The notes beneath the pieces were generated by a model. It worked only from the letters and a program-made list of their open reading frames with translations, was not told where the DNA came from and did no database searches. Source: Tricharina praecox (taxonomy: Eukaryota). From it: a DNA stretch of 64,000 nucleotides. Location of the stretch: positions 310,001 to 374,000 of the forward strand of contig NW_026250426.1 in assembly GCF_024521635.1 (NCBI RefSeq), given 5' to 3'. Below are positions 13,049 to 49,065 of the stretch, in pieces. How positions within the stretch are numbered: the first letter of the stretch is position 1; each line of letters starts with the position of its first letter. A program made the position numbers and the translations under genes.

Positions 13049-13119
13049 TGCATCCATCGGGAGTCGAACCCGAGCCAATTGCTTGGAAGGCAATTATCCT
13101 ACCGTTGGACCATGGAAGC
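13049..13119 (-). tRNA. tRNA-Gly(TCC), intronless, 71 nt
   Basis: Reverse complement folds as a cloverleaf: GCTTCCA/TGGATGC acceptor (U3-U70 mismatch), GTCC/GGAT D-stem, ATTGC-CTTCCAA-GCAAT anticodon arm, TCGGG-TTCGACT-CCCGA T-arm; T-run terminator downstream. Confidence 0.93.
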
Positions 13120-16100
13120 TGTTTCTATGAATGAAATGGATTTGACGAATATAACCTAATTTCAAGAGTTAGAATTCCTACATTGAAAACCATTCCTCCG
13201 GTACTCCCATCATCTATGGATACCGTATTTACACATTTGGGTGATGCTATGTACATAGAATCAGGATCGGCCCTATTCTCCCTCGGGTACTCGCCGCAAA
13301 CCTGTGTTCATCAAGCTACTATACCTACCTACTTCGTGCAGCCGGGTCAAATGCGCAGTTACAACTTACCTATGCAGAGTAGTTACCAGCATACATGTAC
13401 ATGGAAAATCACTCGTCAGAGTCCGGGAACCTTGAGATTTGAGATTTGAGATGTAGTACACGGCGTCCAGGGAACTTCTTGAAGCACGACCCCTGCGTAG
13501 AGTACCGATAGACAAAGGTGATAACGATGGATGAGGGGGTGTAAGGGAGTATGTACATACAGCAGCAAAAAGTGGGGTGCGATTGATACCGAAGGTTTCT
13601 AGTAGTACTGTTTCAATCCAGCAGTCTTAGATAATACAGATTTACTCTGGTATTTTTCCCCCTCTATACTCTCAATTCTACAGTAAAGAAAAACATTATA
13701 CGCAGTGTTGTAAAGATACGCTCACTAAAAAGCCGGAAGGACTACTGCAATTCTTCCGAATGCAAAAATTTACGTGCTGTCCAGATTACCAGGAAACTAC
13801 CAGAGAACTACCTAGCTCGCACAACAGCATAATGCAGAGAAAATGTTGTGATGCTAATCAAATAGTTCCGAGACTGTAGTAAACCTACGACGGCAAGAGT
13901 CTTGCAGAATATATGCCGTGGTGAGCAAAATGCACCAGTCATTGAATTCGGTATGCATACGGTAGAAACCCTCAAGATTCAACAATACGTACTGTGAGTA
14001 AAATGTGCTGTGTGCAAGCAAACATTTACGACATTCTTGTAGTGTATGAAGTGCCGTAAGCCTACGGAATAAATAGTGTAGAGGAAACTATACGGATTGA
14101 GCTGAATATAGTGGAGCTGCCGAGCCCCTACAGAATTGAGAAGTATCAGGCAGTGTCTACACTACGTATATTTTACGTATGCAGGTACATAGTTAACTCA
14201 TACTGACTTTAGTCAGAGTCTTCTCCAAAGTGTATTTTTCCACGCAGAGGAATGGAATGATTATGAACGGAAACTTCCATGGATAAGGCTGCGAGCTTTG
14301 CTAGGGAACTCGAGGAGAGAACTACTTGGTTCGGTGTTCCGACGGTGCACGTTCGTAAACGCACACGAGATGGCAAAGCAAGGCATTGCTGGAGGCAGGA
14401 TATAAAGCTTCGGTTCAGTGTTGGCTTCAACCTTCAGGAAATCGCAGTGGAGAGAGCAATGAACGGTACTAGTAGGTATGACAAGGGCGAGGAATGAGTG
14501 GTGAGCCAGAGGAACAAATAGAACGAGGAGAATGTATCCGGCGTGTTATACGGGGTCGGAGAGGAATGTGCGGTGAGTGTTCGCCGTTCGGTCTTGAAGC
14601 ATTTCACCGCACTCGTGCACTGCGCCCATCAGCTGTGTACCTACATACGTACATACATACTAGTATCTAGCTGATGCGACTTGACGTCTAAGTGTCTAGA
14701 ACGATGATTGAATTCTGCGGACAGATCTGTGGCTGGTGAGTATGGCGATATCCGTAGGATTGTTGGATGAGCTAGATACATAATAGTGCACCCACCAACG
14801 CACACGGTGACGGGATACCAACCACGGAATAGTTAGCGCGCCACTTCTGCAGAGGAGATCTAGGTACTCTTACTGTGATCGCTGCTGTCGGTGTTGTTGC
14901 CGATGCCGCTGCTGCTGTTGTGTAGCCTTCCGGAGCCCGCTCGGCCGCTTTAGCGGCGCCAGCCAGGCCGAGCCCATCGGGGTTCATGGTAGTTTAGCAC
15001 AACGACGCCGTACGTAAGGTTGCAGGGCATCTACATCCCGCCGGCGGCCGTAGATCTCCCCGACGGCGGCAGCCATCCCCCTTACCATGATTCACAGGCG
15101 CTCACTCCGCATCCGCCGGTGATCCCGTCATCCCGCCGTCTCGGCCGGAAACCCCCCGAAACCCCCCGAAGGGGGGAGCTTGGGCCTTCTAGCGTGGCGT
15201 CTTTAGCCCATGTGGGGTAGTTAGTGAGGCAGCTATACGCGTTGTGGGGTGTGAGTCCGACCAGAGAACCCGTATCTCAGTAGTCTCCGAAATCCGTCTC
15301 CGAGCCTAGCTACCTAGAGTGCTGTAGCTGTGTAGGGAAGGATTAGGCGCGGTTGGCGAAATGGCCATGCACAGCCGAATCATGAGCGCTACATACATAC
15401 GACTGGGTTTTGGGCGATCTAAAAGGTTCCTGATCGATCGACGGACTAGAGTAGAGTAGAGTTCTCTACCAATTGCGAAGCGGAAAGGTTAGGTGGAAAG
15501 TGACGGGTGGTTTTTGGGCCCTTGCGCTTAGTCACATACTGGGCTTCTAGGGGGAAAAGGAAGATTCCGCGATGCAAGTAGTTAGCACCTTGATGGGCCG
15601 GGTTGTGAGTGTCGACACCAGGTGATGGATTCTGAAACGTTGGCGACGAGTTGCGCATTGCCTCTCGTGAGTCGGGACGAATGGAGGCCGCAGCGACGGG
15701 TTTCACCGGAGGCGAAGCGTATGCAGCGCGGACGGACGGACAAGTCATCGAGACCGAAACCAGAAAGATCCAGGTCCGCGAGGTTGCCGAGGCGGAAAAA
15801 TCCATGCGTGCATAGAAGTTGGGGGACCGCGGGACACCTATGTACAATATATCTAGATGCTGCTAGACGTGACGGTTCGTGATTGGAGGTGGTTGCGGTG
15901 ATGCGCTTCTGGCCATGGCTGCGGTCGTAAAGATCAGAAACGCTGACGACAGGTCCAAGACAGTTCACAGTGCAGTAGGTAGGTACGCCAGTGTATTGCA
16001 ACGAGATTTGTAGTTCAGAGCCGGCCTACGCACGTATGTAAGTATATATCGGTATCGTCAGACGGAGTGGGGTAGTTAGACATCCCATCGAAGTGGCCAT

Positions 16101-19100
16101 TCCCATAGTTGCATATCGTACGAACGAGCGATGTACCTACATATGCACTGCTGGATCACACACGACCGTTCGTCAGGGCGATGCCGCGAAGTTCGTATGC
16201 ATGTAGTTATGTACGCAGGACGGGTGCTGACGAGTGATTGCACCCCGTGGCCAGCCCGAGATCGACCTCTCCCGGGGGGGTCTTCGGCGTTCCCGACCGG
16301 ATCTCTCCGCCCGCTAATCTCCCGAGTGGTTTCCCGGATCCACAGCACGGGCCGCCCGGCCGGCCGGATGTTTCATCTTTTCGGCGGCGCGATGATCCCC
16401 CCTCCCACCCCCACCCATCCCCTCCATCCCCCCGATCTGGCCATGACCGCCGAAAGAGCCCCAATTCCCCGAGAAAAGAAACTCGGGAAATCACCGTGTT
16501 TCATCAAAGATTCCTTCGGTACGAGAAGGAGGAAGGGAGGTCCGAGTGAGTTGGGTTGAGTCGACGACGGCGGCCGCGGTGCGGTGCGCTGTGTTTCGGA
16601 TACCAGACTCCCGATGCGGAAGAAGAGAGAAGAGGAAAGCCGGACTCTTGGCGGGAAGTTCAAGGCCCCTCGGGTTTCCGAAAATGCAAAAGATGCACAA
16701 CCTTTTTTTTTCTTTACTTTTTTTTTTAGTGGGGTTGGTTTGGTTTGGGTTGGTGGGTTGGATGTCTCGCTCTCCCCGAACAAGCACGAGCGATGATTCG
16801 GAAATCTAGTCTAGCTGCCGAAAGGGATCTACCACACATACATGGGAGGGGGATTTCACGTGCTATGCTCTATTCTATGCAGTTAGAGTACAGGAGCCCG
16901 GTGAGCTGCCCGAGCTTTTTCTACTGCTGCAGCTAAGCTTGACGGTGATGCATCAAAACGCAACGACGCATGACGATGATCACCATGTCGGTATGCATCT
17001 AACGAACGAGTCGGTCCTTCTAGTCAGTACGCCGGCATATGTATGGTATGTATGGTACATGCATACATGTCCTATCCAGAGTATGCATAGAGTAGCTACT
17101 CTCCTTAGAGTCTTGACAAGTGCCGCATAAGCATTAGCAAAGGCACATATCAAACCTCTTACTTGGGTACATAGCAGGCATATGTAGTAATCCACTCTAA
17201 GCATAAGCATAATTAAGCTGCTCCTCTTCCCTCCCTCTTCCCTCCCTCCCCCCAGCAGGACCCCTCCCCTCCAATAATCCGACGGTTCGGACCCCCCAAA
17301 GTGCACTGTGCGACCCTTCGTCTACGGCACTTGCCCATTGGTCGACCCCGGACAATCGGGCGTCTCGGGATGTGCAGGAATAACTCCATCGGCTATTAAC
17401 TATCGCTGATCCGGGGGTGGAGGGGTGGGGTGGGTGGAGCTGAATGACGACGACCGGCCGCGGTATCGATCCGCGCCAGATTTTGATGCGGTGATGTGGT
17501 GATGATGGGATGTGTGGTGTGTGTGAGCGCGATGGGACGTAATGGGACTTCCTACCTACCCACATACCCACATATGCCTACCCGCCGCCGCCCAGCAGCC
17601 AAGATGATATGCGACGCACATGCACTCTACTATAGATAAACATGCAACCTAACCCTCTCCTCTTCCTCCTCCTCATAGAGGTGGTTATCGAGGGGCAGCT
17701 TTCGTCAAAAACCTGATGTCCGGCTTGCGGCACGTGCGCACGGATTTTGGGGTGCCTCGGTGCGGTGCGGTGGTGAGACGGAAACGAAGTGGAGGAGAGA
17801 GGGGGCCTGGGCGGATGATAACTATGTCTAGCTAGATAACTCTACGGGTTATGCATGCAACGGATCCTCCCTCCCTTCCTCCCTCAGCTCTCTTCCGACC
17901 CCACACTGGGCACAACGCCAAGGTTACCCAGACTAAGACCACTGAGACACGCGCCTGTTCGAGGAAAGGCGCCCCTCCTCCCCCCATCATCCGCTTGGCA
18001 TCACTACCATGATCCGGTCTGGTTTCGTGGAAAACCTTCAAGGCAGGCCACAGACCGTATGCGTGTGTGCGGGAGTGCGTATGGGAGTATGTGCGTGTGT
18101 GTAGATGGCTTCATCAGGGAAGTTAGTTGGCCAGGAAACCCCCATCCCCCAAAAGAAAAAGTGATATCCTGGGTATGTATGTATGATGTACTGTACGATA
18201 TTGACCGGAGCAAACCCTACCCAACTGGCACAGACAATCTCCATCGCATGAATGGGTGCCTCCGGTGGTCGGGGAGGGGGAGGGGGATCATCGAACCACC
18301 AATGGACGAGTGCAAAAGACCTCTTCCAGGGCGGGAGACTCGCAAGCCGCCGACGTCGTTCGTTTCAAGAACTCAGCCTGCCTGCATCTTGCATCTTTCT
18401 CTGGGGGTGTTGGGGTTCGGCGGTTTCGGCCGCGGATCATCACGGTTGGACCGACCGACCGACCGACCGACATCCTGGGGGCAGATCAGCAAAAGCGAAA
18501 AACATGCCTTTTTGACGCATGGCTGCTGGTGGGGTGGGGTGGGGCGTGGAGAAAAAAAACCTGCCGAATCTTGACGCTCGGTGGTGGTGGAGGTGGTGGT
18601 GGACATCGCTGGAGACGTAGATCTGGGGTATGTAGAGCACCTACCTATGATGACGCCGAGTTGTTTGCAGGTCTTCTCTTTTGCTGCAGCCTCGGTGTCA
18701 CACTCCGTTGGCTGATAGCTAACGTATAATTCCTATGCTATGGCTGCTGACGGGCGAAAAAATGATTGGCCGGTACCTACTTGGTACCTATTTCGAGCCC
18801 AGCAGTGACCACTAACTAACCAGTGATCCGCGGATCCGCGGGATGGGATGGGGAAACGCTCGCTCGCTCGCACGCATGCACATCAGCCTCCCCTCCCCCT
18901 CTCACTCCCCACTGCAGGCTGAATTCAGCCAGTAAGTCGGCAAGTAGAGCGTATCACGTCAGGCCCAAACCAAACTCCCATGGAGGATGGAGGGCGGGAA
19001 GGGGGCGTCGTTCTCAAACGCGGACACGGTTACCTCTTGTGGCCCAATCGCGGATTTTTCCATCCATCCATCCATCCATAATACCCGTACCGGGACGTCT

Positions 19101-22100
19101 CGGACACTTCCTGCGGCCCGCGCTTTCACATGCGATCCCACTCCCACTCCCACACCGAGACGAGACGAGTGACATCAAGTGCCTCACATGGTACCCCATC
19201 GCATCGCATCGCATTTCATCGCATTTCATCGCATCCTGTTCCCCGGGGATGGGGAGGGGGGTTTAAACAACCTATAGTACAGTAGCTGGTAGGTATAGGT
19301 ATAGGTACCGTATTGCTACCATAAATAATTCGAGGATGTATAGTAGGTAGAGTACTCTACATACACAGCCTACATAATATACACTCACCCTATGGTAGCA
19401 TACCAAGTTACCAACCAACCATGGGGAGATTAATTCCACATAGCCGCCGTCAGCGAGGAGATCTGGCGTAGTTACCCACCGTACCTATTTTCCAATATAT
19501 ACATCTAGCGTCAACACTACCTAGGTCCTAGTAATTAGCACCCAGCACCCAGCACCACCAGCACCACGTGTTCATCTTTGCGGCCTTTTTTTTCCTCCCC
19601 CACCAAACGAAACGCAACGCAACGCAGCGGAACGAAACGAAATTTGTAGCTTCCCTTCCTTGGGAATTCTACCGGTGAGCTGGTGAGCTGGTGAGCTGGT
19701 GGTGAGACAGCCGGGATAGCCGGAATCGAAGAATCGAGGGAATCTCGAACGGAGGGGAGAATAAAAAACGATTATAGTACTATGCTATGGAGTGGAGTCG
19801 ATGGCTATAGGTGGTTAGGTAACTGGTAGAGTGAATAGAGTACGGTACCTACCTACGTACGCGTCGGTCAGTCGGGCGGTCAGTCGGTCATTCACGACGA
19901 CGGATTGACCGGCACACATGTGGAGGACTCAGGAGGACGGGGGGCGGGAGGGAGACATGTCACATCAGACGATAACCTTCAGCCGGGTGATCCCGCATGA
20001 AGGCCTCCAGGCTCCTCCTCCCTTCCGATATGTAGAGTAGGTACAAAGAACCTCGTGGCCGTATCGAATCGGACCTATGCTCCCACGCTCCCGACCTTAG
20101 AGCCTTGGAGTCTTAGAGTCTTGGACCTTGTGTTCCCAACTCCCAACTTCGGGGGAGGGTGAAACACAACAAGCGAAGGGAACTCTCCCTATCGATTTCG
20201 AGTCGAGTTGTGGACTAGTTAGCGTTGGGTTTTTGACAGGCAGGCTGGAAGGGTACGTAACTTAGGAAGCGCGGCGGTGCATTTCCTCCCCACGTGACAA
20301 CTTCACTAATTACTACTAAAAAGTTCACTTCCAAATGCAAGTAAGTGGATCAATCTCAAATGTCGCTCCTCCCGGGCTCCCAGGCTCCCAGGCTCCCAGG
20401 CTCCCAGGCTCCCAGGCGTCCAGCTGAACGGGGGTGCTGGGGTGGGGGGGGGGGGGGGGGGGGGGGGGGAGAATAGGAACAAGTTGGAGCTCGGGACTCG
20501 ATGCAGCCAGTGCACAAAAGGAAAAAACGTTTGATTTTTTTCTTGTCGTTTTTACCGCATGGGGTAGGTAAGGGTACTCTACTCAGGCAACTATAGATAT
20601 AGCACCCTACCTATGAGGCTATGACTTGGCGGTTCTCTCCGGAGCAAACCGATAATTATCTGGGTACTAACTATATGTATCGATATATGTAGTTAGATAG
20701 ACGGTGATATCCACCCGTGCCACTCGACGACGGCGGTAGGTAGGACGCGGACGCAGGTCACGCTGATCTGATCCCGGCGATCTGCCTGTCTGTCTGTCAG
20801 TGCGATACATGTGGTGGATATTTCCGCATGCAGTGCATGGTAGGTAGCCTCATCGAGTCCCGCCCCTTTCACGGACAAGGCGGCGGCGAGTGGTGGGAGA
20901 GAAAGAGGAATCTGGGAGAGAGCCTTCTTTGCAATTTCGACTTTCGAGTCGAGCGGGGACTCGGGTTTGTTGGTTTGCTCTAAGTTCTTCGGTGGGATGG
21001 GTAGGTAAGGTAAGGTAGAGTACGGCAGGTACTTGCCTACCGTTTAGGTATTATGTAGTATTCTGTGTATGTACCTGTAGTACCTATTGCCCTCCTCCTC
21101 CCGCTTCCATTGTACTCCCTGCTGCTCCCACTGCTCCCACTGTTCCCAGCCTCCGACAGTCCCACTCCGGCTCACTGATCACTTGTCACTGCACTGATCA
21201 CTGATCACTGTGAAACGGAGCAGAGCGGTTTACATTCCCAGCGGAGATGAGGCGAACCCAACTTCCAACCTCCAACACTGAACAGCCCAACATTGAACAG
21301 CCCGTCCAGTCCGCGCGCTCGGGATCTGAGTGCATAATAATTCAGGAGTGCATATTTAGTATGTACACAGTTCCAACTTCCATGTAGATATCATATGTAG
21401 TGTACATACATACCAGGTACACAGAGATTGCTGATAAGTATTCGATCCTCGATACCCACACTGCACCTACACTGTGCCTGAACAGGAACTTGGAAGAACC
21501 TGCCCTGCGCTATTTATGTACATACTTGGTATGTGTGTACGAGAAGAGCCCACGAAAACGAGTACTTGGCCAGCACGTACTTGCTCGTTTTCTACTGTGT
21601 GGATCGAGCATATATGCGCAGTAGTACCCACCCAGTACATCTACCGTCCGTCCTTCCGTCCTTCCGTCCGCAGTGACGATTGATCGCATTTGGAGTCTGG
21701 CGACGCCGCATCACGCCAGCGGCCGCGCCACGCCACGCAAATCACCCACGCAAATCACCCACGGCCCACGGTCTACGGGTAATCTGCGCGTAGGCGAGCG
21801 GTCGCAATGAGGCGATGTCGAGTCGTACATAACATACATACACACCTGGTACATGCCTGGTGCATACATGGTACTCCAATGCAATGTAATGTAATGTAAT
21901 GCAGCAAGCCATCTCAGACGGACGGTCCTTTCATCGAGTATCAATCATGTATCATATGTACTGTGCAGTACATATCCGTCAGTCGAGGTCGTGCCTCCCT
22001 CCATCCAGGATCCCACGTGGCTTGTGACAGTGACAGTGACAGTGACATCCCGGCCCTGGCTTTGCTTTGCTTTGGGGTGCCACCCAGTCTGTGGCTAACT

Positions 22101-22695
22101 GTCTGCCTGTATATATGTCTGTTGGGCGGTCGGGCGGTCGGGTTGTTGCTACCTAGTAGTCAATGCTGTGAGATGCTGATGGATCATGGATAGCATATGT
22201 ATGGACATGGCGGATGAATGGTGGATGGTGGATAGGTGCAGTGCAGAATAGCAATATCACCAGCCGATACCCACCTATATCCCCATGTAGTGGGCAAACA
22301 AACAATCTCCGGTTTCTACACATGTATGCAAGTTGAACGAACAGCGATATCCCCCGCAACCAGCACCCAGCATCCAGCGCGGTCGATAACCAGGTTAGCT
22401 ACCTACCAGCCTACCAGCCTACCAGCCTACCACTGGTCCACTGCACTGCACAGAATTCTGCCAAGTCGTATGTATATATGTCTGTATGTATGTGATCCGC
22501 AGCGGGGGTTGCAGACTCAGTGCACATGTGGCGCGACTCGCGACTCGCGACCGGTGATGATAGTTGTGATTGTGCTGGTGGTGCTGCTGCTGGTGGAGGA
22601 GGTGGTAAGGTAGCCGCTCGCATGTAGAGTACTCTACGGCAAGTACCATGCCTTATGACCACGTGCGGGAAGTTTCCTCAGCGCCCGCCGCCCAG

Positions 22696-22770
22696 TGCCC
22701 AGAGTGCCCAGTGTCCAGCGCCCAGAGTGCCCAGTGTCCAGCGCCCAGAGTGCCCAGTGTCCAGCGCCCA
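22696..22770. repeat. 23-bp minisatellite (GCCCAGAGTGCCCAGTGTCCAGC) x~3
   Basis: Directly visible tandem repeat. Confidence 0.85.
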
Positions 22771-25700
22771 CATGGAGATCGTACCTGATCCGACCGTGGC
22801 TGGCATGAGCATGAGCAAGGGCATGGGGGGGCATGAGCATGGACATGGGGGGGCATGGGGCATGGACGATAACGCAACACCCAAGTACTCTAGGTACATA
22901 TGATACCATTAGTAGATAGGTGCGTGGCTGCGGATCATCTACATATATACATGTTCCCATGGCAGAGGAAACTTGTGGCGGGGCTGTGGCGCGGTAACCA
23001 CTATGAGTATGTGCATACCTTTGGTAAGAGGTAAGGACTTGGACATGACTTGACTGCAAGACTGCAAGACTGCAGGATTTCGACATGGACTTCAGTTCTG
23101 TTCTGTCGAAGCTACTGGTATGTCTAAAGTACATACAGAGCTCCCGAGTAGGTACATAGAGTACCTACGGGATGGATGTCGTACATCGAAGGTACATCGT
23201 ATATACTCGCCACCAGCAAAAGTGCATACCCACGCCCGCAGGCACGCACGGCTGGCTCACAGGTTACACTTCCTGGGCCCCTCCTCCTCCACATCCTCTT
23301 ATCGTTCGGATCCGCCCGGGGGGAGGGGCAAGTTCTTTTCTCCAGATCCGTCGTCATCGTCTCGTCGAGCTGAGGCACGATTCCGGTGGTGGTGCAGGGC
23401 CAGGGTAACTAACTGCTAGTAGGTATTTGTCGACCCCACGCAACCTACTCTACTCTACGCAAACCCTATTCGTTGCTGAATGGGCGAGGGAGGAGAGGGG
23501 AGGAGGGGAGGAGGGGAGGAGATGTAGGTAAGACATGCATGGGAGGAGATGTAGGTAAGACATGCATGGGAGGGAGGGAGGGAGGGAGGGAGGGAGGGAG
23601 GGAGGGAGGGGAAGGATGAGGAGCGATTGATCACCCTCACCCGACCCCCTCCCCTCCCGTCCTGGAGCGTGGGGAGAGGGGGAGTCAGAGGGAAGAGGGG
23701 GAGAGTGAGTGTGTGTGCTCCCTGTGTGTGTGCTCCCTGTGTGTCTGTGTGTGTGTGCGCTCTGTGTGTGTGTGTGTGTGTGTGTGTGTTCGGTGAAGAG
23801 AAAACCGAGGTTGCACTGTGTGTAAGTAGCGCGAAGCAAGGGATGATTCGACTGCGGAAGACGAGGAGGACGAGGAGGAGGAGAAGCAGGAGGATGGCAG
23901 TGAGGATCCGGGAGCTTACTAGAGCAGCTAGTAGCTACCCATGCGCACTGGCGTGCGGGGCCGGCGCATCCCCCTCCCTCCGTCGCTCCCTGCCTCTCTG
24001 CGTGCCTCCCTCCACCGGGCACGCATCCCCTTGCTCCCACCCACAGTCCGAACACGATGTGTCTGAGTGTGTGAGATGGCTGCAAGTACGATGATGATGA
24101 CGATGATGATTATGTGTGGTCTCTTTCCGCCACCACCACCACCACCGCCGCCGCCGACCACGCCGGCCGGCCGGTACACCGTACCCACACACGCAGTACG
24201 AACAATTCCAGAATAGGGAGGAGGAGGAGGAGGAGGAGGAGCTGGCTACTGGAGGAAGTTTGAGATCCGTCGGATTGAACCCACCGAAAACGAAGGAGAC
24301 ATTGGGTAGCGGGAACATGGCCAATAACTAGAGTATCCAGGCCTCCACGATCTAGAGTAGAGTAGATGTACCAGCAGACACGGTCACCGGTTTTGCGCGC
24401 CCTCCGTTCCTTCCTTCCCCCGTTCCATCGTTAACTTCCTTCCTTCCTTGCACACATACGGCGGCGGCGGCGGCGACGGCGTGGATTCTCCGGCGTCCAG
24501 CGTCCAGCGTCCGTCGCCTTTCGTATTTGTTGGCCATGGCCGCTCGCACACTAACTACTCTTGTTAGTGACTCGGCTCAGGCCCGGTCGAGAATCGAGAA
24601 AAGATGCTTCGAAGAATTTTCGAAGAATTTTCCACACGCCGTTGTTCCAGCTGTTCCAGGTCCTTGCGGAAATCACCTAACCTAGTCCCTCCCCCCTTCC
24701 CATGGCGCGCGAAAAGGGGGAGAGGGGGAGAAAGCAAGCAGCAAACAAGCAAGCACGTCGTCATCTCCGTCCATCCGTGGGTGGGTAACTACGGTATCTA
24801 GATAGCCAGATCTACCACCCGCCCTTCCTTCAGGCTTCGAGGCTTCGAGGCTTCGAGGATTCGAGGATTCGAGGATTCGACAAGAGCGGCTAACTAGCCA
24901 GCCAACCTTTTCGTTAGTACGGGCGTACTACCCATAGGTCTTTACATACCCATCGTATGTATCGTATGAATTGTATCGTGTCTATCGTATGTATCGCACC
25001 TATCTGTCGTAAGTATCGCATCTATCGTATGTAACGCCCGTGGTAGCCCATGGGCCGCGGTGGCCCGTGGTGAGCCGTGGCAGCTCAGCACATAAAAGAA
25101 AAAAAAGAAAAAAAAACGTGGTTAAGCCACTCCGGACGATCGCCCCGCTTCGTCGGGTCGACGCATTCCCCCCCCCCCCCTCCCTCCCACCTCCCCAGCC
25201 GCAGCCGTATGTAGCCCCTCACATCATTTTGCCAAACCAACCATCCAACCAACCATCCATCCACCCTCTGATACACCACGTGCTCTGATGCAGCCACAGT
25301 ACATGGAGTAGGTAATCGCCTCTCCGCTCCGCAGTCCGCGGTCCGCACAAACTGTTTTCCCTCCCTCGCTTATTGGGTTACACACACACACACACACACA
25401 CACACGCGAGCTGTCGGCACGAGGGGGGTCTGTACACACATATGATATATCTACAGAAAAAAAGCCGAAATGTATCTACATTATGCACATATCCTCTCCA
25501 ATGTCTCCAATGTCTCCATCATAAAACGAACCGAAAGTCCAGTCTGCTCTGCAATTTACTCTCCAGGTCCGGGGCTGGGGGATGGCGGGAGGGAGGGGGG
25601 GGGTTACCTACCTCACATATATCATACATATCATACATACTCCTACATACTCCTACATATGCTACAAACGCTCGCTTCCGCCGTGCCGGGCCCAGCACCA

Positions 25701-29361: not shown

Positions 29362-29371
29362 TCTATATAAG
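29362..29371 (-). promoter_or_regulatory. Candidate TATA box of mtfA
   Basis: CTTATATAGA on the minus strand ~230 nt upstream of the ATG, followed by a pyrimidine/CA-rich leader. Confidence 0.45.
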
Positions 29372-33438: not shown

Positions 33439-33555
33439 AGCAGCAACAACAGCAACAACAGCAACAACAGCAACAACAGCAACAACAGCAACAACAGCAA
33501 CAACAGCAACAACAGCAGCAACAGCAACAACAGCAGCAACAGCAGCAACAGCAGC
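33439..33555. repeat. Compound CAG/CAA microsatellite, core (AGCAACAAC)n
   Basis: Directly visible; produces the poly-Leu and Ser/Asn ORFs of the ORF track. Confidence 0.9.
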
Positions 33556-36500: not shown

Positions 36501-39500
36501 ATCCTTGAGAAGTTACATGTACATCATACATACGGGTTCATCTCGCCGCCATCCAGCAAGTTGAAGCCAGTGTCAGTGTTGTTACAGCCTGACGCCGGGA
36601 TCGGCGTCGAATGTGCTGTACTCTACGTACATGACATGGGTTGCAACAATTGCGGGCCGTGAGCAGACTGCCGCGCGACCTTGCATGAGTCGTGACAGTG
36701 CGATCCGCCGGTAGGCTGTAGCTCTCTCCCTGCAGCGGTTGGGTTGTGGGGGGTAGGTGTGCGTCTCCCTCGGCTCGATTAGAAGTACCTATTTGGTTGC
36801 ACGCAGTGCGCACTGTATGTATACTCTACATACATGTATGTACATGTAAGTACTGCTTGTACTTACTTACTCATGTATGTACATACACCACGTACTCATG
36901 TACTCATGTACACCACCATCACCACCACCACCACCACCACCACTACCACCACCACCACCACCACATGCTGCCAACAGCATCCATGCCTCCCTGCCATAAG
37001 GCTCATGATCGATGCGGAGCCGGAGCCGGAGCCGAAGCCACAAAACCAGAAAGGAGCCGACTCCCGCGCGGCCGAAACTGGCTAACTACATAAAGACGGC
37101 TGGGCCGGTGCGGCTTAAAAGCTTGTTTTGCATTCTGCATCTGCCTTGCCTACATACATAGGCCGGGGGGGAATCAGATGTACATTGTCATATGATGGAT
37201 GGATGGGGGGAGGGAAGCCGCAAATACCATTACCATCACCTCTTTCAAGTTTCGGTTTCGATTCATATTTCTCTCCTCCCGGATCGATCTTTTTTTTTTT
37301 CGCCCTCCGACGGTGTACTTTTGTTCAGTGTTGAGTCGGAACACAGCGCATCCGCTGCGTTTCCTTGACGGTTCAGGATACGGTAGTCATTCAATAGCGA
37401 CCAAGTCGATACCTACTATCATACTCTGACTACACCCAACCGCCCATGTGGCATGTATCTATCTTGATTCTTGATAACCAACCGCCATCCATCGAACCAC
37501 ATGGCACGGATCCGTCAAACCTCAGCCCTCAGGAGTTCGATTTTCCGCCGCGTGTGTGGCATGCATTCCTACTACCTAGATTAGGCTGATTTGTTTTGGT
37601 TTCTGAAGTAAAGTAGCATACCTAGCGGGCAACGTGTGCATTTACCTGTGTAAATAATCGATCGATGTGAAAAAAAGGAGAAGCTCGGACTTGAAGATAG
37701 GGCGGAGGGGGGTGGGAGGGAGTGGGAGTGATCCACTGCAGTTCAGTGATCGACAGGCACGGCACTCTACGTACGTACGCATGTCTGTAGGTAGGTACAC
37801 AGTCGTACACAGTCGACGAACACCGCCCGCCGCCGCCGGAAGCTGGCCCGTCCGTGTTTCGTTTCGTGGATTCTTCCGGTGGATGTATACGGAATACCCT
37901 GGGACGTGGGGGAGGGGGGCGTTTGCGGCTATTGTAGTGGAGTCCTACTACCTCCTCCTTAGCCCTACTCCTACAGGCAACCTACAGACAACCATCTACA
38001 AAAGATCTTACGACTCCCTCCAAGAAACTCAGCTCAGCTTCCGCGGCGGCCGGGACGGGCTAGCTGGTTAGCTGAGGAAATGGCAATACCGGTACCTACC
38101 ATATTAGCATGTGAAGCACCGAAGGCTGAAGCAGCCCTTTCTCGGAGCGGAGCTATTTATGGCTGGATGGATGATGGATCGCCTCAGCTGCCAGGTATGC
38201 AGAGTAGGTATGCAGAGTAGGTGCCAGGTGGGTGCCAGGTATGAAGGTAGGTAGGTGCCGGGTTGTGGTTCTCGTTGTGGAGATCATCATCGTCTTTGAC
38301 TCCCGGGGGGTGAGGAATCTACCTTCCCGGCTGTTCTCCTGCTTTCGCATTTTCGGCACGTAAAATCCGGCCGCTGCGGCGCTGGCCGTCGGTATGTACT
38401 CTACTCTACGTACTCTACATACTCTACGTACGTTCATCGCATCGACGATCAACACGCCCCAGCCCCAGCAGAAACGAAGCAAGCACGGAAGTATCCAAGT
38501 GCGAAGTACGAAGGGAAGGGAAGGGGAGGGAAAGGGACTCGACCGGGGCCGGGGGATTCGACCGGGGGACTGGCGACGGAGAAAGTGGATGTGGAGCCGG
38601 GGCTTGAAACATGAAGCAACACCACCACCACCACCACTACCCAACCCAGACACAGGCCCCAAAATCACCCATCGCCTCCAGCCGGAGGGGATGAGGGGAT
38701 GGGGGGATGGGGGGATGGGGGGATGGGGGGATGGGGGCGGAACTCGCTACGGACCTACGGTTCATGGGCCCATGAAGCAGCAGCGGCAGCAGCAGCACCA
38801 GCGGCGCCGGCGGAAAGGACCACGTTCGTATATACCGGACGGGTAAACCGTAGTACGAGCAGTAAGTATACATATATTGAACGGTCTGTGAGATACATAA
38901 TTCCGCTTACCAGTGGTAGGCCGCAGTTCGTTCGTGCGCGTGACTCCAGAATCCACTGTCCATACCGGTATTCCCGTGAAACGAGCAGATCGAATCCTCC
39001 ACCCATCCACCCACCCATCCACCCCCCGGCCGTTGATTGGCCGATTGGTTGATTGCTTGGTTGATTGGCTGGTTGATCGGTTTGGGATCTGCGTAAGCTG
39101 TCCAGTGCCCCAGCAGACGGCGCAGTGCAGTGGTGTGGGGGGATCGCACATCGAATATCGAATATCGAATATCGAATATATCCGGGTATTATGCGTTTCA
39201 CTAAACTGGCTCATGGCAAACATGGACCCCCAGAGATGGTAAGAGCTGGGAAGAGATGGTAGAGTTGGTAGGAGCTGGTATGCTAAGAGCTGGTAAGAGC
39301 TGCTGGTACTATACGTGCTCTACATAAGCTCATCTTCGGTGACGCCTCATTCCTTTTTCCGAATCCCGAATCGCGATGATACAAATACTCCGAGAGTCCG
39401 AGTAGCAGCAGCAGTAGTTGATCTATGTATTTCACTACCAACAAGTTACAATTTACAAGTTACAGGTGAATCCCGCCATCCCCCCATCCCGTCATCTTGC

Positions 39501-42500
39501 GATATTACACATGTGCAGCCCATCCGGGTTCGATAAACATCCCGCTCCAGTGGACCAGTGGTCCCTGCAGCAAATGGAAGCCAGCCCCTCCCTTCCCTTC
39601 CCTTCCCTTCCCTTCCCGTATTCACTATAGGTACTTACTCTACATACTCGCGGTGGTGGTGCTGGTGATGCGGGCTTGAAATGGCCGGTGTGTGTGTAAA
39701 CTGACGAACATCGTTCTTCCCGGCAAACACGTACGGTAGGTACTATATGCTACCCAGCTACATACATGTCTCGAATCGAATCGAGTATATATACCTAGAG
39801 GCTAGCTCCTGGTCGGAGATCAACCGCTGCAGTGATGTGGGCAGCGGTATGTAATGTATGTATGTAGGTATGTGGGTCAGTATGTGTGTATGGATGTGTG
39901 GAGATGTATGGATGTATGGATGTACCTCGTCGTCACGGCGGAAGTACATTGGGTAGTACGTACGTACGTACCTGTGTACGCCTTGTATACTATCTATGTG
40001 CCGACCACAACGATTCATTCATTAATCCTCCCACCCTACCCATCCTGGCAGAAAGAACTTAGAAGGAGATTGACGAAATCGGGAACGGGCATCGTGGTGA
40101 TAATTCGTAGTATGTAGTTTCTTGCTCGGTGCGTAGGTATGATACGTCCTTCTTCCGGCTTTCAGCTTCCCTCGAACGTCGTTACGAGATGACGCGGCGG
40201 CAGCGGCAGCGGCAGTGCGAGCTGCGTTAATGGGTCGGCAAGTCGGTATCGTAGTCGGTACCTGGTATGTACATACCTGCTGTATCCCGCAGCATCGGAC
40301 CGGCTTCCAGTCCGACGGGACTGACCTGTTGCATGATCCGGATACGTAGTAGGTATGGTACCCAACGTACCTAACGTACGCGGGCCCCTCGGGAGAATTT
40401 GAGAAGGCGCGAGGCGCCGACACATGTGCAACTATAATAGCGTGCGCCTGTCCCGTCACTCGGCTGATCGTCGCATCACATGCGCCGGCCAACTCTGGGA
40501 AACGTATGTAACAATATAGCTGCGTTGTCGGTTGTGAGCATTTTTTTTATTTTCAATTCGGAAAAACCGGTGGCCTGTCCGCCCATGACAAGTACCGGAT
40601 GTACTCTACCAATTATCCCCCTAGTCGGGAACTTGGAAGCAGCTTTCCACGCTTCCATAGTGGTCACGGCGTGGGGTCGGCGGCGTGGGGGCTCTCGCAG
40701 AATTATCCCGCCCTCTCAGTTCTCTGGAGAAGCCTTCCTCTCTTTCTCTCTCCCTCCCTCTCTTCGGCGGTTACAGGCTTGAACTCTCCGTGGTCGTGAC
40801 GCAGCTCGGGTTTCATACCGAAGGGGAGGGAGGGGGGAGGGTATACGTCTCGTCCGCTATGGCTCCCCTCTCTTCTCGGTGTAATACGCCCCTCGAAACT
40901 GATCCTGCCGGCCGCGCCTGCGGATCATCCAGGGTTTTTTTCCGGTCCGCTGCTCAGTGCTCATCCTCGCCCTCCCACCCCACCTCGGTGATGACACCCC
41001 GCACTTGCTTTTATACGGTACCGTATGCGGCCACCGTAATCTACCGGTACTATAACGTCTTCAGATCCGTCATTTATCTTCACAGCCGACAGCGACTGGT
41101 TGTGTACTGCTGATGGTCGCTGGGGAGGGGATCGCCAGTAGGTAGATTGGAATACATAGTAGAGCGGAGGGGGTGGTGATGAGTATGGAGTATGTAGTAG
41201 GTGTGTGTGTGGGAGTTTAAGAGGATATTTCCATCCTCCCCTGCTGCTGCTGCCTCGCAGAGGTGATCATATCACTCATATTACATCTAAGTACATACCT
41301 ACTTCATACACACCAGCCCACAGCCTGGCTGCTGATCCGCGGGAATAGATTTTCCTTTATCCAAAGGTGTGTGCAACGAACGAATGAGCGAACGAGGGAG
41401 GCGAACGAACGAACGACAAACCAACCCACCACCACACCACCACCTCCATCATCATCATCATGCAAAAGCAGGGAGCGCGGCACATCACCCCAGATTGACG
41501 ATGCGGTGCGGTGCGGAAGATCATTCGGTCTGCACTGCACTGCACACTTGTCTGTCCGTCCATCAGTCAGTCAGTCAGTCAGTTAGCAACACGTAACCAC
41601 GTAACCCGAGCGCATGCGCTTCCTAGTTCCCGCAAGGAGGAAAGCAAGAAGGGGAAAAAGAAATACCACCTACTATGTACACTCGGGATTGCGTGAAGAG
41701 ATCCGGAGACGTCCAACGACCAGCGCTCACTGGTCCGCCGCCGCCGGCACTGTCGGGTATGACTGCAGCGGAGGTGGAAGTGGAAGTGGAGGTGGAGGTG
41801 GAGGTGGAGGTGGAGGCGGAGGCGGAGGCAGAGACGGAGGCAGACGCAGACGCAGACGCAGACTCAGCGTCAGGTCAGGTCAGGTCGTGCGACTCACTCA
41901 TCTATGCGCGACGCAGACCACGCGACTACATACCTACCTGGGTAGAGTGGGTACATGCCGGCTGGGTCCCTCGGCTCTCTCCCTCCCTCCCTCTCTCCCT
42001 CGAAGCTCCCTATTGCATCCCCGCTCCCGGAGGCGGAGGGCTCTGGACGAGACGACGGCTGGTGGTGGACCCTTAAGCGCACATACCGCGCCGCCGCCGC
42101 CTCCCCACCGGTTGGATGCATGTATGCATGCATGGATGGGTGGAAGTTGACTACGCCGCTGGCCGGGAGGCGAGAGGCAAGAGGCGAGATGTCCCGGACG
42201 GCCCGGTGCTGCGTCTTGGCCCGTGACCATCTAAGACTGTGCAGTAGCTGCGGATGCCTGTGTCTGACGGAGAGGCCGGAAGCATGTGGAACTCGCCTCT
42301 CCCCCTGGCTTGCCCGAGACCCGGTCAACTGCTTCGAGGTACATAGGATGGAGAGCGGACCCTCCATCTCCAGCCTCCATCTCCGAGTGACGGAAGATGA
42401 CATGTTCCGGCGAGAATCCGTTGTGCAACAGGATCGACGCGTGTATGATACATACGGTCGGTTGGAATGAAGACGTGCGGTTTCTGCCCCTGTCGATCAC

Positions 42501-45500
42501 ATCGCCCCGTATCTGGGGAGTGTGGTGGGAGAGCGCCGGCTGGGTTGGGTCGGGTTGGCCGTGGTCTGCGGGAAATTTCAAATCGCCACAGCATGGACAG
42601 CGCCCTTTCTTGCTTTTGCTAGAATACCTATCCAAAGGAGAGAACAGCAATATCGATCTTAAACTTTGCCTACAGCATGAAAGTAACGACCATATATGTG
42701 GTGTACATAATTCCTACAACCTCAAGCTTCCGTCCGTCCATCCAAGACAACTGTCACCGTATGCGAGCATCCCGCGCCCGCGCCCGCACCCGCGTGTCTC
42801 ACTCACTAACTACCGTCCAGCCAGTTACATACCATCGACCAATCCGTACGGGTATGGTATGGTGTATGGTGTAACTATGGTGTGGGGAACCCGAAGCAGC
42901 AATGAGCACGTGGGGGGGGAGTTCGGCGTTTGAGTCACTAAGGGTAAGGCTTAGGGGCAGATCATGTCAAAGTTCGTTTGACAGTTCCAGGTTCCCGTCA
43001 AACGAGCGTTTCGAATGATTCACATTACGGGCTGCTGGGCCCAATCCGGTAACATCAGCCCGGCGCGCGCGATGGCTGCGAGTCTGCGACTTCGGGGAGG
43101 TAACGGCTCGGAGGTGGGAGTTTCTGCAGTTCCTAAACGACCTGGTATGTACCTACATAACAGGTACCTCCTATGCAGGTGGGTTGGGCGGCTAGGTAGG
43201 GACCCATAAGTCGCCAAAGGCCACGGCAGCGTCAGGCGGCTTATGTGCAGGCTATCTAATAACTACGGCACTTACTTACCTGGGTACTCTACCTAGGTCT
43301 GCAGTAGTAGCTATGCCTGTCAAAATTTCCCCCTCGCTCGCTTTCGTTCGTTCTCGGAGCTCTCGAGCTCCTTCTCGATACGAACATACGTAATCTTCAA
43401 CACCAACGGCCGCTCTTCCGGAAAAACACGATATACCTGAAACGTCCCGCGAGAGCCAAAAGAAGCTCGACCCGCCGAAGTGCCTGTGCCTGTGTGTGTG
43501 TGGGGGGTGTGGGGTGTGGGTTCCACCGCAACGGTATTCGGCGATCATCATTCTTTTTCTCTTCCTTTCTTTCTTTCTCTCCCTCTTCTCTCCGTCGGAT
43601 CCGGAATGATATGGAGTTTTTTTTTCCGGGTTGCCGAGGAATACCGACGACGACGGACTGGCCCGGGAGGATGGGGCATGGGAAAGTGTCGAGCTCGCCC
43701 TTCGCTGACATATCCAGCATTCCCCATCGCATCCGGCCGCGGCCTGATCTGATGGGCCAGATATTTGCATGGCATGCGATCGGAAGGATGTGCCACTTCT
43801 ACCCGTCTGAATGCTGCTACTAGGAGGATCTGAATGTATAGCCAACCCTTGGTCCTCCTGTCCGGCCGGGTGTGCTTCTAGGGTAGAGTAGAGGATATTT
43901 CCCTTCATCCGTTTTGGGCGCCCATACGCTCCCCTCTCCTTCATCCGTAACTATTCCTCTCTTTCGGGGCCCTTACGCCCCCAACACCTCCCCATGCCTC
44001 CTCCTTCATCCCGTATTCCTCCCCTTTCGTGTTTGCTTTTCCTCGACTCAGCTGATCCATTTACTCACGACTCACAACCGGCTATGATAGGTACCTACAT
44101 ACACACAAGACATACCTGTGCATACATATCATTCATACGAATGTTTACCGAGCAATTCCAACCTATCGGGATGGGATCGAACCAAAACCCCTCCCAGCAT
44201 CCAAGCGACCGACTTTCCGAGTGCGGTGCTATCCTCCGCGTGGGCCGGTTTGGTATAGATTAAACCTCGTAAACTCCCACTCCACCCGAGACCCACTCCC
44301 TGCCCCCCCCCCCCCCCCCCCCCCCACCGCACTAACTCCACCTTCCAGAAGCATCGGCCGCATGGTTATCAGGACGACTAGGTATGTATGTAGACCTACG
44401 TACTTACATAGGTACACACGCTATACATATGAATCGTAGATATCCCGGATCCGGATGCGGAACCATGATGGTGATGAACGTTCATGCTGGCTGGCTGGCA
44501 ACCTTGAAAAATGTCCGTGCGTTGATCGGTATGCTCGCTCACTCGCTGGAGAGAGAGAGAGAGAGGGGGGAAGAGGGTACAACCGTACATGGAGTTCATG
44601 CAGTATGTAGGTACATACATAGCTCGCCGGATTCTTCGTAGCATTCCTCAGGCTCCCGGGATTTCGACTGCGCTTATGTATGGCACATACATAACTGCGC
44701 CGCAGGCAACTCTTCTTAACCCGGGGAGCGAACAAGAAGAAAAGAAACACACATACATACACATACATACACACACATCCGGCGTCGGTCAGTAAGTAAC
44801 CAACATCCGTCGACCCAACCCACCGTGGGAAAAGGAGCACGGGGATGGGGATGGGAGAGGGTAAATGCAATCCCACACGCACACACAACACACAGCAAGG
44901 AACAACAAGGAGCATCCATGCTCCATCGAACCATACCCGTTGGTTGACGTTGACCAGGCTGTGTTTTGTTTGGAGCCCTCCCCCTTCCCTTCCCTTCCCT
45001 TCCCTTCCCTTCCCTTCCCTTCCCTTCCCTTCCCTTCCCCCCTCCCCGCATGGATATGGATGGATGGATAGATCATGGTTGCGTGGCAAACAATCCCCGA
45101 AATTCACTGTCATGCACTGCAGTGCAGTGCGGTGCGAGCTGGGTTGGGTTGGGTTCGGACACGTGAATGCCGTGTGGCTAGTAATTTCTGGAGATATACT
45201 ATTATCTAGAATACTATATATGCAAGTATCGCTGTGGGGTTGCATATATGTAGAAGATATATATCGATAGTTATCCGTGGAGTTGTATTCGAGTTGTATT
45301 CGTACGTACAAACATACAACCGGAAGGATATGAGTTCCGGATTCTTATGCTAGATACCTAGCTGGCGGTGGAGCTCTGTCCTTTCCCGCCCGCACGCATG
45401 CGGAGTGGCACTGCTGGAAGCTAGAATCAACGCGCTCTCTGCTCCCGATCCACCCAGTGTCCGGCGAGCTTTCAGCATATGTTTTCCACGTGGGCTGGAC

Positions 45501-48500
45501 TGGACGATGATCCTCCTGATGCGTGCTACCTACCTACCTAATGTATGTACTATCTACGGTTGGGAGGAGCGGAGGATTTTTCCGCGTCATTGGTACATAC
45601 TCGCACTCGCACATGGGCCGAAAGTGATCTGATGTGATGTGAGGTGATGTGCGAGTATGATCTGATGCATTGCATGCACTGATGCACTGATGTGCAGCGT
45701 AAGTACTTACCTGGTATCTCATGGCGCATGGCGTGTCGCTTCCATGTGAGCTCACTCTCCCTCCCTAATCCGGCCGCTTGGTCTGGATTCTGGAAGAAAC
45801 CATGGACATGTCTCTCTCTAGATGACGAGTTTCTCTTCCCTTCACTAGCAGGACTAGGCCGGGCTAAGGCTATTCGCTTGCTTGCTTGCTCGAGAGTCGA
45901 AATGATACCGGCCGATCCAAAAAGCTCGAAACTTGAAACTTGAAAACGTTGTCAACCGTGCTATGCGCTGCGATGCGCTGGGGGTTTCTACATAAGCATC
46001 ACGGCCGATCCGACGATGTCCGGACTCCGGAGATGAATGAACGGTCTGTTCGAGATTGTAACTGCCTATCTATACTTGGTACATGTGCCGACTAGTCACT
46101 GGACGTGCGGTACATATTCAGCCCGACCGTAGGTATGTAGGTACACACCAGGTATCACAGCAGCAGCAGCAGGGCTTCGCTTCAGTCCACTGTCCCCACA
46201 TACAACCCGCTGTCTGTTCCTTCCCGAACATCCCAACAGGTGTACGTAGTGACTGCTCATACGTACAACCTTCTAGTGCCGGACGGATTGGAGATTGGTG
46301 GCACCGTAACGACTCTAACGAGCGAGGGCTGTGGTTATCCACGAACCGTCACTCGATACATCTACCAGTTGCTGCTCTTTCCTCGTGTCTAAATTACTAT
46401 CACCGAGAGTACCACGGTCATATTGCAATGCAATGTATTGCTGTTCTCGAAGCGTGAATCTTGTTTCGAAGCTGCGGTAATCTCGCCCGGCAGACTGGTG
46501 GCGACATAGGTAGGTAGCCCACGCAGTTGGTACGAGTCACTCGCCGCACTTCAAACTTGCGGTTGAGCATCTGGAGGTTTGAGCGTCTGTGGGTTGATCG
46601 TCCGAGAGTTGAGTACCTACATACATGGAACTGGGAAAAGCTACTATTGCGTTGCCGAAAACGTCCCGACACCACACACCCAGGCCCGAGTGTCGACGCG
46701 AAATTTGAAGCCGGACCGATCGGGATGTGCACAAGGGGGGATGTGCACGAGGGAGGAGGGAGTTCGTGCTTGCCTTCTTTTCTCGTCGGGTCTGCGGTCT
46801 GCGGATTCGGACTCGCCGCCTGGTCGTAACTACTATACACGTTCGTGGAGTGCTGGATAGATATTAGAGGATCGTGGGTTCTGGAAAAACTGTGGAACAT
46901 AATTACTCGTAACTATTCGACGTCCCCCGCAGACGATCATTGGCCCGCATGCTGATACATACTCTACTAGTAGTTACTGGTCCGACCGTGCATCGCATGG
47001 TAAGAGACTCCAGTGGATGATCCGGATTGGGCTGTGGTGATGTTAGTTACCACAAGGTATCACTCGCTCGCTCGTCTCGTGCAGCGTGAGTTTACTATGT
47101 AGTAGAGTGTGGACACCGCACTGAACGATCCGGGCGGCGGTATGGACAGTGGAATGGAGATGTATACCCACCGCCCTACCAAGCCCGGACGGCGGGGCAT
47201 GGCGGCGGGGCATGGCGTAGCATTGCTATCGAGAAATATCACTCGGCATCTTCGTATTCCTCTGCACTGGCTCATCTACATACAATTTCCGTCAATGATG
47301 GGAGTAAAGTGAATAGGGTGAGACGGTCTTCGGAGTCGATCATTCTACCAGCTCTTTTCCGGTGTACGCACCGAAATTCTCGATTCTCGACATTCAGTGT
47401 CCGAGTGATCCCCATGAGCGGTCTCATACGGTACTCAACAGTGCGGACTAAGTACTAACTGTTATACCGCAAGGAGATCGTGGACACTACGATGAGCACA
47501 ATGGATGTTGGAAAGAGTAGAGGTATTCACGGAAGCGATGGAGACGGAGAATCATGAATTATGATGCTATGTTCGGGTGAAGAAGCTACAGTTCAAAGCG
47601 TTTCTCCATTTCTTCCTTTCACTGTGCAATAAGTGTAGGTACTAAGTGTTCCTGTGAGCAGGATATCATCGATGTAGATAGATAGATGGGATAACCCGAG
47701 TACGCTGCTCTTCATTGGTGAATCATTATGAAGAATCCGCCGCCGAGCCTGCCAAATTCAAATGCCACTGCAATGACTGTATGTACTGGCAAAGGGTGCA
47801 ATGGATACCACTCATAGAGCGATTATTTGCGCCGTAGAAGGAGAAAAGAAGCTTCCAAACCGGTGTGCTATGTCTCGCCGAGGGTAGTTTCAAAAGCTGC
47901 GTATCTATATCCCGAAGGTGGACGCATGTATGATACATAGATCTGCGCATGCAATAAGCTGCCGAGTGACGCTGTGCAGTGGGCATAGGTATGTACGTCT
48001 ATCTGCTCGATTTCCCAACCCAACCGTGCTTTACGGCCATTGCAAGAGCAAATACATTATACCGGTAAAGTCATACCATTAGTAGTGTCTAGATACCTAG
48101 GTAGTCAATACTCTGCCTCGATCACAGTTGTTGATCGCCAACTCTTCGAGTAGCTTCTGCAATCCGTTTGAAGGCACCGGCTAGACCAAGCACTCTGCCG
48201 GAGCCCACTGAGGCTGAAACTAAGGCCGATGTCTCAGCATACCGGTACCTATATCCACACATCCATCCTACACAGGTACTTCCGGTGTGGCCGGTAACTA
48301 ACCCGGTGGAAAGATTTGTCACGAATAGCACTCGCATACCTAAGTAGGTAGTACATGCCGCAATTTCCCAATAATGGGCGTTGATTCCGACTTGATTTCA
48401 AACGCGTGTTCACTATTCAGCAAGCTGGCAGTGGGGGTATTTCAAGCGATCGCCGCTGTAGAATGGGGTGGCTTTGGAATGCTTCAGAATGCTTAAAATT

Positions 48501-48994
48501 TGGTAGCGGGACGGGTTAAGGATGTCCACAAAATGGAGGACATTCCGGTGGCGCTCCGTGAAGCTGGACTGCTGGACTGCTGGGCTGCACCCGAGCCGTA
48601 AACTCGTTTGAGAGCTCGAGTACTGCTGTAGAGTACTGTGTTTTACCCGTGGCACAATCCGTATCGAATGCGATCCAGTACTACCTACCGCTGAATAAAT
48701 GTACAGTCTATGGCTCACCAGACTTGGCTACTTGCACTGCTTGGTAGAGCTTCTTGTGGTCCGTCTACTAAATGGCTCGCACCAGAGAGCAGACCTCACT
48801 CACTCAGCAAGAGTAGCTGCAACGTCCCATTTACCCACCGCCACACACCCCACGATTTAGTCATGATGGGCGGAACTCTAGCCACAGAACGAAAAGGTAT
48901 TTCCATGAATTTCCGTCTTGGACCAGAGTGTATTAGCCCATGCTAGCTGCTTTCTATACTAATGGCACTAAATATTCTTAGTATAATATACGCA

Positions 48995-49065
48995 GCTTCC
49001 ATGGTCCAACGGTAGGATAATTGCCTTCCAAGCAATTGGCTCGGGTTCGACTCCCGATGGATGCA
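48995..49065 (+). tRNA. tRNA-Gly(TCC), intronless, 71 nt, identical to the copy at 13049-13119
   Basis: GCTTCCATGGTCCAACGGTAGGATAATTGCCTTCCAAGCAATTGGCTCGGGTTCGACTCCCGATGGATGCA; cloverleaf with A/B boxes; TTTTT terminator at ~49082. Confidence 0.93.

Follow-up and report, generated by a model that had tools for sequence, protein, structure and literature searches.

Within a 64,000-nt stretch of the Tricharina praecox genome (contig NW_026250426.1, positions 310,001 to 374,000; hereafter the window, with coordinates counted from its first nucleotide), the C2H2 zinc-finger gene mtfA, which encodes a fungal developmental regulator, stands alone in a 36-kb interval bounded by two tRNA-Gly(TCC) genes. 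From sequence comparison we judge, with a probability of roughly 0.68, that this interval is an extended cis-regulatory region of mtfA and that the tRNA pair is a by-product of the local spread of tRNA genes (tDNAs), not a pair held in place by selection. Such a layout has already been published for mtfA and for fungal regulators generally; the present case is larger and involves both sides of the gene. An earlier sequence-only reading of the window had proposed a tDNA-insulated, metazoan-style long-range regulatory landscape. The arrangement that it described is borne out by ARAGORN, Rfam, Pfam and a codon model: identical, outward-facing tRNA-Gly(TCC) genes lie at 13049-13119 and 48995-49065, with mtfA as the sole recognisable gene between them. 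An extended cis-regulatory region is likewise favoured by conserved blocks and gene-free orthologue flanks, but it is neither new nor metazoan-like, since the class has been published with the mtfA gene AN8741 named in it.

mtfA is the sole recognisable gene of the interval

The gene and its free flanks are as follows.

28275..29132, minus strand: mtfA orthologue, intronless, single copy, 285 aa, two C-terminal zinc fingers (C2H2); identified by homologues, start methionine inferred
29133..48994, no strand: gene-free region upstream of mtfA, 19.9 kb up to the tRNA gene (Pfam, codon model; conservation examinable for the first ~10 kb)
13120..28274, no strand: gene-free region downstream of mtfA, 15.2 kb up to the tRNA gene, microsatellite-rich, GC 53%, no RIP (repeat-induced point mutation) signature (Pfam, codon model)

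The mtfA frame runs from an ATG at 29132 to a stop codon at 28275, and the named matches of its product include mtfA, the best named ones being from Pyronemataceae (Wilcoxina 72%, Geopyxis 62%, Pyronema 58%). When 138 stop-to-stop open reading frames (ORFs) of at least 95 aa in the interval were searched against Pfam, mtfA alone passed the curated cut-off, and four others gave sub-cut-off matches to low-complexity or repeat profiles. None of the 123 ORFs scanned among the 132 of 70–94 aa produced a match (5 others lie within mtfA and 4 were unscanned). A codon model, self-trained outside the interval and applied with repeats masked, scored mtfA at 19.3 and the rest of the interval at no more than 11.4, compared to 17–160 for most flanking exons; this model performs poorly on low-complexity regulators and could therefore miss small or spliced genes as well as lncRNAs (long non-coding RNAs). 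No run listed as RNA matched 24001-33000; two runs of uncertain kind contain 0.41 and 0.30 of its words. A poly-Q ORF (33.4 kb) and a Glu/His ORF (30.4 kb) were rejected as microsatellite artefacts, as both vanish on repeat masking and reach only sub-cut-off Pfam scores. A transposon or RIP origin of the desert was also rejected, given that RIP indices and transposon Pfam matches are lacking and the tested part is single-copy. Neither side of mtfA carries a RIP signature or an AT-rich block marking constitutive heterochromatin; little RIP is reported for Pyronema (PMC3778014).

Conserved non-coding blocks upstream of mtfA

A metagenome search yielded 80 mtfA orthologue loci (labelled L plus a number). 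One of these, L172, aligns collinearly with the mtfA upstream region in 26 blocks (1465 bp) at an identity of at least 27/30, reaching out to 7.6 kb, compared to 0, 0 and 1 block in three neutral simulations; downstream of mtfA, 2 conserved blocks were found against the same locus. The L172 MtfA protein is 87% identical over aligned codons, with fourfold sites 42% different. By this measure of conservation, the mtfA desert is under constraint. The blocks fall into three groups.

27992..28139, minus strand: conserved block, probable mtfA 3′ untranslated region (UTR), 91% identity to L172
29286..29904, minus strand: conserved blocks over the promoter and 5′ UTR, containing pyrimidine tracts on the sense strand and, near 29365, a TATA-like box; parts also kept in L105–L107
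32383..36713, no strand: 19 distal conserved non-coding blocks, 3.3–7.6 kb upstream of mtfA, with frame-breaking indels; single-copy except for a CAG/CAA microsatellite

Among the conserved blocks, near 33090–33180 and ahead of the CAG/CAA microsatellite, lies a canonical-looking plus-strand intron with a conserved acceptor, which could possibly belong to a divergent lncRNA. A DDE transposon ~3–5 kb upstream of mtfA is polymorphic between L105 and L107, which are of the same species; its presence in one and absence in the other indicates that the mtfA upstream region tolerates insertions.

Flanks of mtfA in other fungi

In relatives the mtfA flanks are visible to 10 kb, and the desert edges of Pyronemataceae lie farther out. 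Pfam scans of orthologue loci, a set that does not include L172, L132, L138, L166, L120 and L173, covered ORFs of at least 105 aa (at least 135 aa for L158 and L167), excluding ORFs that overlap recognised genes; the codon model was dropped for these loci, having scored their own mtfA at only 3–6 in low-GC genomes. In L105, L112 and L114, assigned to other Pezizomycetes by nearest named protein, no Pfam gene except DDE transposase fragments occurs within ~10 kb on either side of mtfA. In seven more distant loci the upstream side is Pfam-empty for 10 kb (L136, L150, L145, L158, L167 and L123) or ~8 kb (L142), and downstream neighbours, where seen, lie 2–6 kb from mtfA. The upstream emptiness shared by distant loci, together with the closeness of their downstream neighbours, points to great age for the upstream region and to lineage specificity for the 15 kb downstream.

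The protein-coding neighbours of the interval in T. praecox are the following.

11249..11871, minus strand: left neighbour MIC19/AIM13 (DUF1690), by homology; ends approximate
49410..50757, minus strand: right neighbour ERD1 (EXS family), by homology; start approximate

By accession order, Wilcoxina keeps ERD1-mtfA-MIC19 on one scaffold (accessions ending 462, 474 and 480), with 11 gene models between ERD1 and mtfA and 5 between mtfA and MIC19. On the same basis Pyronema has mtfA near ERD1, with 2–6 models between, and the link is broken in Geopyxis, Ascodesmis, Tuberaceae and Kalaharituber. Genes that adjoin mtfA in other fungi (Hsk3, areA, Wbp11 and the L142 neighbour) are all found elsewhere on the present contig (C22), a pattern of mesosynteny; Hsk3 and areA, for example, lie 5–7 kb downstream of mtfA in L111. 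In that Pezizomycete locus (347-10003) mtfA and areA point towards each other across 7 kb; on C22 they are convergent too, but with 190 kb between them (areA at C22:146448-148226).

ARAGORN, run on loci of at least 6 kb, found tRNAs in 3 of 32, two of these being one locus, and there are single calls at 5.9 kb downstream of mtfA for L158 and, for L123, at 6.3 kb upstream. A tRNA is absent at all 6 edges with a Pfam-confirmed neighbour in five distant loci, the edges of close relatives being out of view.

Gene deserts elsewhere in the genome

We surveyed ~1.0 Mb, comprising the whole of C22 (629 kb) and 370 kb of contigs C94 and C28. Gaps of at least 7 kb number 25 in this survey and 13 on C22, so the dense gene spacing described for the flanks of the interval is true locally and not of the contig as a whole. 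The mtfA upstream gap is the largest (20.3 kb; next 19.4 and 19.2 kb), and the composition and hexamer bias of the mtfA desert are like those of other large gaps (r = 0.58). Besides mtfA, five single-gene domains have gaps of at least 7 kb on both sides.

C22:534797-571406: C2H2 gene alone in 36.6 kb, no edge tRNAs
C28:699466-729073: Myb gene alone in 29 kb, no edge tRNAs
C22, upstream of areA: gene with a partial zinc-cluster motif (our reading; no Pfam match), gaps of at least 7 kb on both sides
C94: two further genes, each with gaps of at least 7 kb on both sides

Furthermore, areA and a cyclin gene sit in deserts of this genome. A third outward-facing tRNA-Gly(TCC), at C22:117787, lies at the edge of a region (117045-148226) in which 14-kb gaps surround the zinc-cluster-like gene and areA. 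The words GTAGAGTA, TACCTAC and TACATAC are 2–4 times denser in large than in small gaps and nearly absent from coding DNA.

Comparison with large upstream regions of fungal regulators

According to Noble and Andrianopoulos 2013 (PMC3730340), regulators of Pezizomycotina, C2H2 regulators above all, typically have large and conserved upstream intergenic regions (UIRs), and the legend of their Fig. 8 lists six showcase genes: brlA, stuA, creA, imeB, AN6578 and AN8741, the last of which is mtfA (PMC3774644). Measured against that study, the T. praecox locus concerns the same gene, an intronless C2H2 regulator; its upstream side is Pfam-empty over 8–10 kb or more across 10 orthologue loci; it has sense-strand polypyrimidine tracts within 2 kb upstream; and it is not transposon-built. 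In the first 2 kb upstream of mtfA, CT windows outnumber AG windows by 19 to 1 on the sense strand, a bias that is also strong in L172, L112 and L114 and weak in the other 6 loci. The TACRGAGTA motif, a feature of a large-UIR subset, has no exact match in the mtfA interval and is rare in all large gaps here; its variant GTAGAGTA is 3-fold enriched in large over small gaps and may, judging from this distribution, be the form that the published motif takes in this lineage. Of six class features, four were found and TACRGAGTA was not; on the sixth, variable expression across conditions with long UTRs, the conserved 3′ block merely suggests a UTR. The mtfA region measures roughly double the mean reported for stuA (10.9 kb) and has an additional 15 kb downstream. 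The word tRNA does not occur in the main text of PMC3730340.

Outside this class, regulators of the Candida albicans white-opaque circuit (PMC7793994) and ros1 of Ustilago (PMC4917244) are described with unusually large upstream regions containing several binding regions, and complementation of ros1 required its 7.6-kb upstream region (PMC4917244). Factor binding was shown there by chromatin immunoprecipitation, whereas for the mtfA region the evidence is conservation; the relevant passages of those papers mention no tDNA borders, unlike the mtfA domain.

The published large-UIR pattern is thus extended to an early-diverging filamentous ascomycete and to a larger scale (36 kb, both sides). The 19 distal blocks are concrete enhancer or silencer candidates for mtfA, and they bear on a point brought up in PMC3730340, namely whether DNA far upstream has importance in fungi.

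The tRNA-Gly(TCC) pair and tRNA gene clustering

The edge tRNA genes and their trailers are as follows.

13049..13119, minus strand: tRNA-Gly(TCC), left edge (ARAGORN and Rfam); T-run terminator; lies upstream of MIC19, 1.2 kb from its start
48995..49065, plus strand: tRNA-Gly(TCC), right edge (ARAGORN and Rfam); 345 bp from the ERD1 stop codon
13019..13048, minus strand: 3′ trailer of the left tRNA, common to the right tRNA only, a sister-copy signature (flank scores)
49066..49095, plus strand: 3′ trailer of the right tRNA, common to the left tRNA (flank scores)

The two genes (Rfam score 65.2 bits) are the only RNA genes found in an Rfam scan of the window. They are identical at 71/71 nt, face outward and lie within a 118-nt inverted repeat at 92% identity. 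Their A-box and B-box are intact, as in all nine Gly-TCC copies of the genome (read against the consensus). GC content dips to 46–49% over ~2 kb inside both edges (13120–15000 and 47000–48994), upstream of each tRNA, which is wider than the average 0.5-kb dip around tRNAs. All nine copies have a T-T mismatch at acceptor pair 3:70, and two variants among them show a compensatory A-T/G-C difference at the inner end of the acceptor stem.

That the two genes are identical was correctly noted, but identity does not set them apart: the nine copies comprise 5 identical and 4 near-identical ones, 5 of the 9 on C22. The edge pair nevertheless has the best trailer score (20) among the 36 Gly-TCC pairs, the next best total being 7. 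Isoacceptor genes are regionally clustered in this genome: 14 of 17 Lys-CTT copies lie on C94, 10 of 11 Arg-ACG copies within 81 kb of C28, and 3 of 5 Glu-TTC copies within 20 kb of C22. Of the 13 pairs of adjacent tRNAs on the entire C22 contig, 5 have matching anticodons, as do 22 of 35 pairs overall, in all orientations. With such clustering, identity of the edge pair is to be expected; because neighbouring Lys, Arg and Glu copies also have short flanks in common, sisterhood at 36 kb fits the local pattern.

The regions of confinement (C94:486-1157 kb, C28:684-765 kb, C22 and C39:410-494 kb) contain isoacceptor copies dispersed among protein genes in both orientations, with only 10–30 nt of flank in common, and the Arg-ACG cluster mixes intron-bearing and intronless copies. 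Animal isoacceptor clusters (Drosophila, vertebrates) are reported to arise by local tRNA gene duplication (PMC2997554). The copies here differ in being scattered between protein genes across tens to hundreds of kb, facing either way, and in having so little flank in common. As a general feature, the confinement of tRNA isoacceptor families to particular regions may be the greater surprise. Our search, which lay outside most of the subscription literature, found no publication on regional isoacceptor clustering or on tDNA-bounded regulator domains in filamentous fungi.

In the survey, a tRNA lies within 2.5 kb of 9 of the 50 large-gap edges, counting the mtfA pair. For near-gene tRNAs, large-gap edges show no significant excess (11/34 versus 24% expected, P = 0.19; a dubious tRNA call with a 774-nt intron was excluded from the edge statistics). 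tRNAs do avoid desert interiors, 5 of 39 lying more than 2.5 kb from a gene versus 10.9 expected (P = 0.02). None of the five other single-gene domains has tRNAs at both outer edges, and two have one at a single edge.

Origin of the arrangement and alternative explanations

In the account that we favour, an extended cis-regulatory region with an incidental tRNA pair, many transcription-factor sites over at least 7.6 kb upstream would be kept by selection, the distal conserved blocks would act as factor-binding modules for mtfA, and the spacer may have grown by microsatellite slippage. The observed clustering and trailers suggest that tDNAs spread by short-patch duplication together with 10–30 nt of flank, new copies landing close by on the same chromosome and facing either way. 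As few tDNAs occur inside regulatory regions, surviving copies would be left near genes, that is, at domain edges. One duplication, possibly plus an inversion of the whole domain, could then have put sister tDNAs at both edges. Each intact tDNA would bind TFIIIC and probably has a local effect, which may be on nucleosomes or by enhancer blocking and is most plausible for the left one beside the MIC19 promoter.

Several observations pull the other way. The neutral rate for the block simulations comes from one gene only (130 sites), and the 370 kb surveyed outside C22 was picked for tRNA richness. The configuration is expected by chance only ~0.1–1.2 times per genome (0.003–0.005 per domain, or 0.0006 by hand from C22 alone without the mtfA pair, with ~230 domains extrapolated), a range that depends on how the mtfA pair and the tRNA-rich blocks are counted. 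The third Gly-TCC copy (C22:117787) also faces outward at a desert edge, as do 8 of 11 edge tRNAs in all (P = 0.11, by hand). Among the nine copies, each edge gene has the other as its nearest relative, which would also fit conversion between loci held in contact. Lastly, an A. nidulans mtfA deletion was complemented by a fragment with the coding region and UTRs (PMC3774644), so in that species the basic phenotype does not depend on distal DNA.

That the pair is instead the scar of an inversion, in which one inversion spanning the entire mtfA domain pulled apart a duplicated tDNA (tandem copy, or product of a staggered break), we regard as unlikely, and it would leave the regulatory reading of the desert unchanged. 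Breakpoints inside the domain would be selected against and hence fall at the edges, leaving inverted sister tDNAs there, so that a single event would cover the identity, common trailer, inverted orientation and edge position of the pair. The chromosome is internally shuffled, and the dispersal along C22 of genes that neighbour mtfA in other fungi makes such a variant plausible. It is countered by the short flanks that neighbouring copies of either orientation have in common with no inversion in evidence and, weakly, as strand is not visible, by Wilcoxina, where the conserved gene order has more models on the ERD1 side, the side that faces the longer upstream region here.

Quite improbable, in our estimate, is a boundary pair maintained by selection, in which TFIIIC bound at the two tDNAs would bring in cohesin or condensin and set up a loop or barrier, so that mtfA enhancers or facultative heterochromatin stay confined and anchor contact keeps the copies homogenised. 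Known tDNA barriers, at S. cerevisiae HMR and S. pombe cen1, border silent chromatin; the mtfA domain resembles them in having intact tDNAs at the edges of a domain of different character and differs in that RIP and AT signatures reveal no evident silent block and housekeeping genes form the flanks. The intact A and B boxes, the position of the tDNAs at the very edges, their sister trailers and the avoidance of desert interiors by tRNAs are compatible with such a role. So are the insulator function of tDNAs in S. cerevisiae (PMC11413187) and the TFIIIC-driven binding of structural maintenance of chromosomes complexes and tDNA contacts in C. elegans (PMC13142402). A 2023 review describes boundary elements of filamentous fungi as undefined (PMC10246852), and a boundary role, if true, would provide their first named insulator element. 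The insulator or loop proposed by the sequence-only reading nonetheless gained no positive support: the five comparable domains lack such a pair, edge enrichment is not significant, same-anticodon neighbours are common, confirmed edges in distant loci are devoid of tRNAs, and no RIP or AT-rich block needs a guard. A yeast chromosome III without tDNAs, moreover, is reported to fold largely intact, with two of its genes changed (10.1101/412247). A broader proposal strikes us as a long shot: TFIIIC-bound tDNAs would be the missing boundary elements of 30–50-kb regulator domains in Pezizomycetes, with the mtfA pair serving as loop anchors and their contact promoting copying or conversion between them, and with regional isoacceptor confinement following genome-wide; contact-driven copying would there explain why the mtfA pair alone has a common trailer.

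Least probable of all is that the interval holds lncRNAs or small spliced genes, with some conserved blocks as their exons or promoters: the intron-like site, the models annotated in relatives (2–11 separating mtfA from ERD1 and 5 separating it from MIC19, their nature not visible) and the weakness of the codon model on low-complexity proteins would allow it, but the blocks contain many frame-breaking indels, the intron donor is not kept in L172, and no Pfam match passed the cut-off in 261 ORFs other than mtfA.

Degenerate gag fragments in the window

At 55874-57521 the window contains two inverted fragments (~520 nt, 81% identical, ~0.6 kb apart) of a degenerate copia-type gag sequence. They match Retrotran_gag_2 at 26.2 bits, just under the cut-off, with no further copy in the 1 Mb surveyed. 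From their inverted arrangement, the fragments could give rise to a hairpin RNA.

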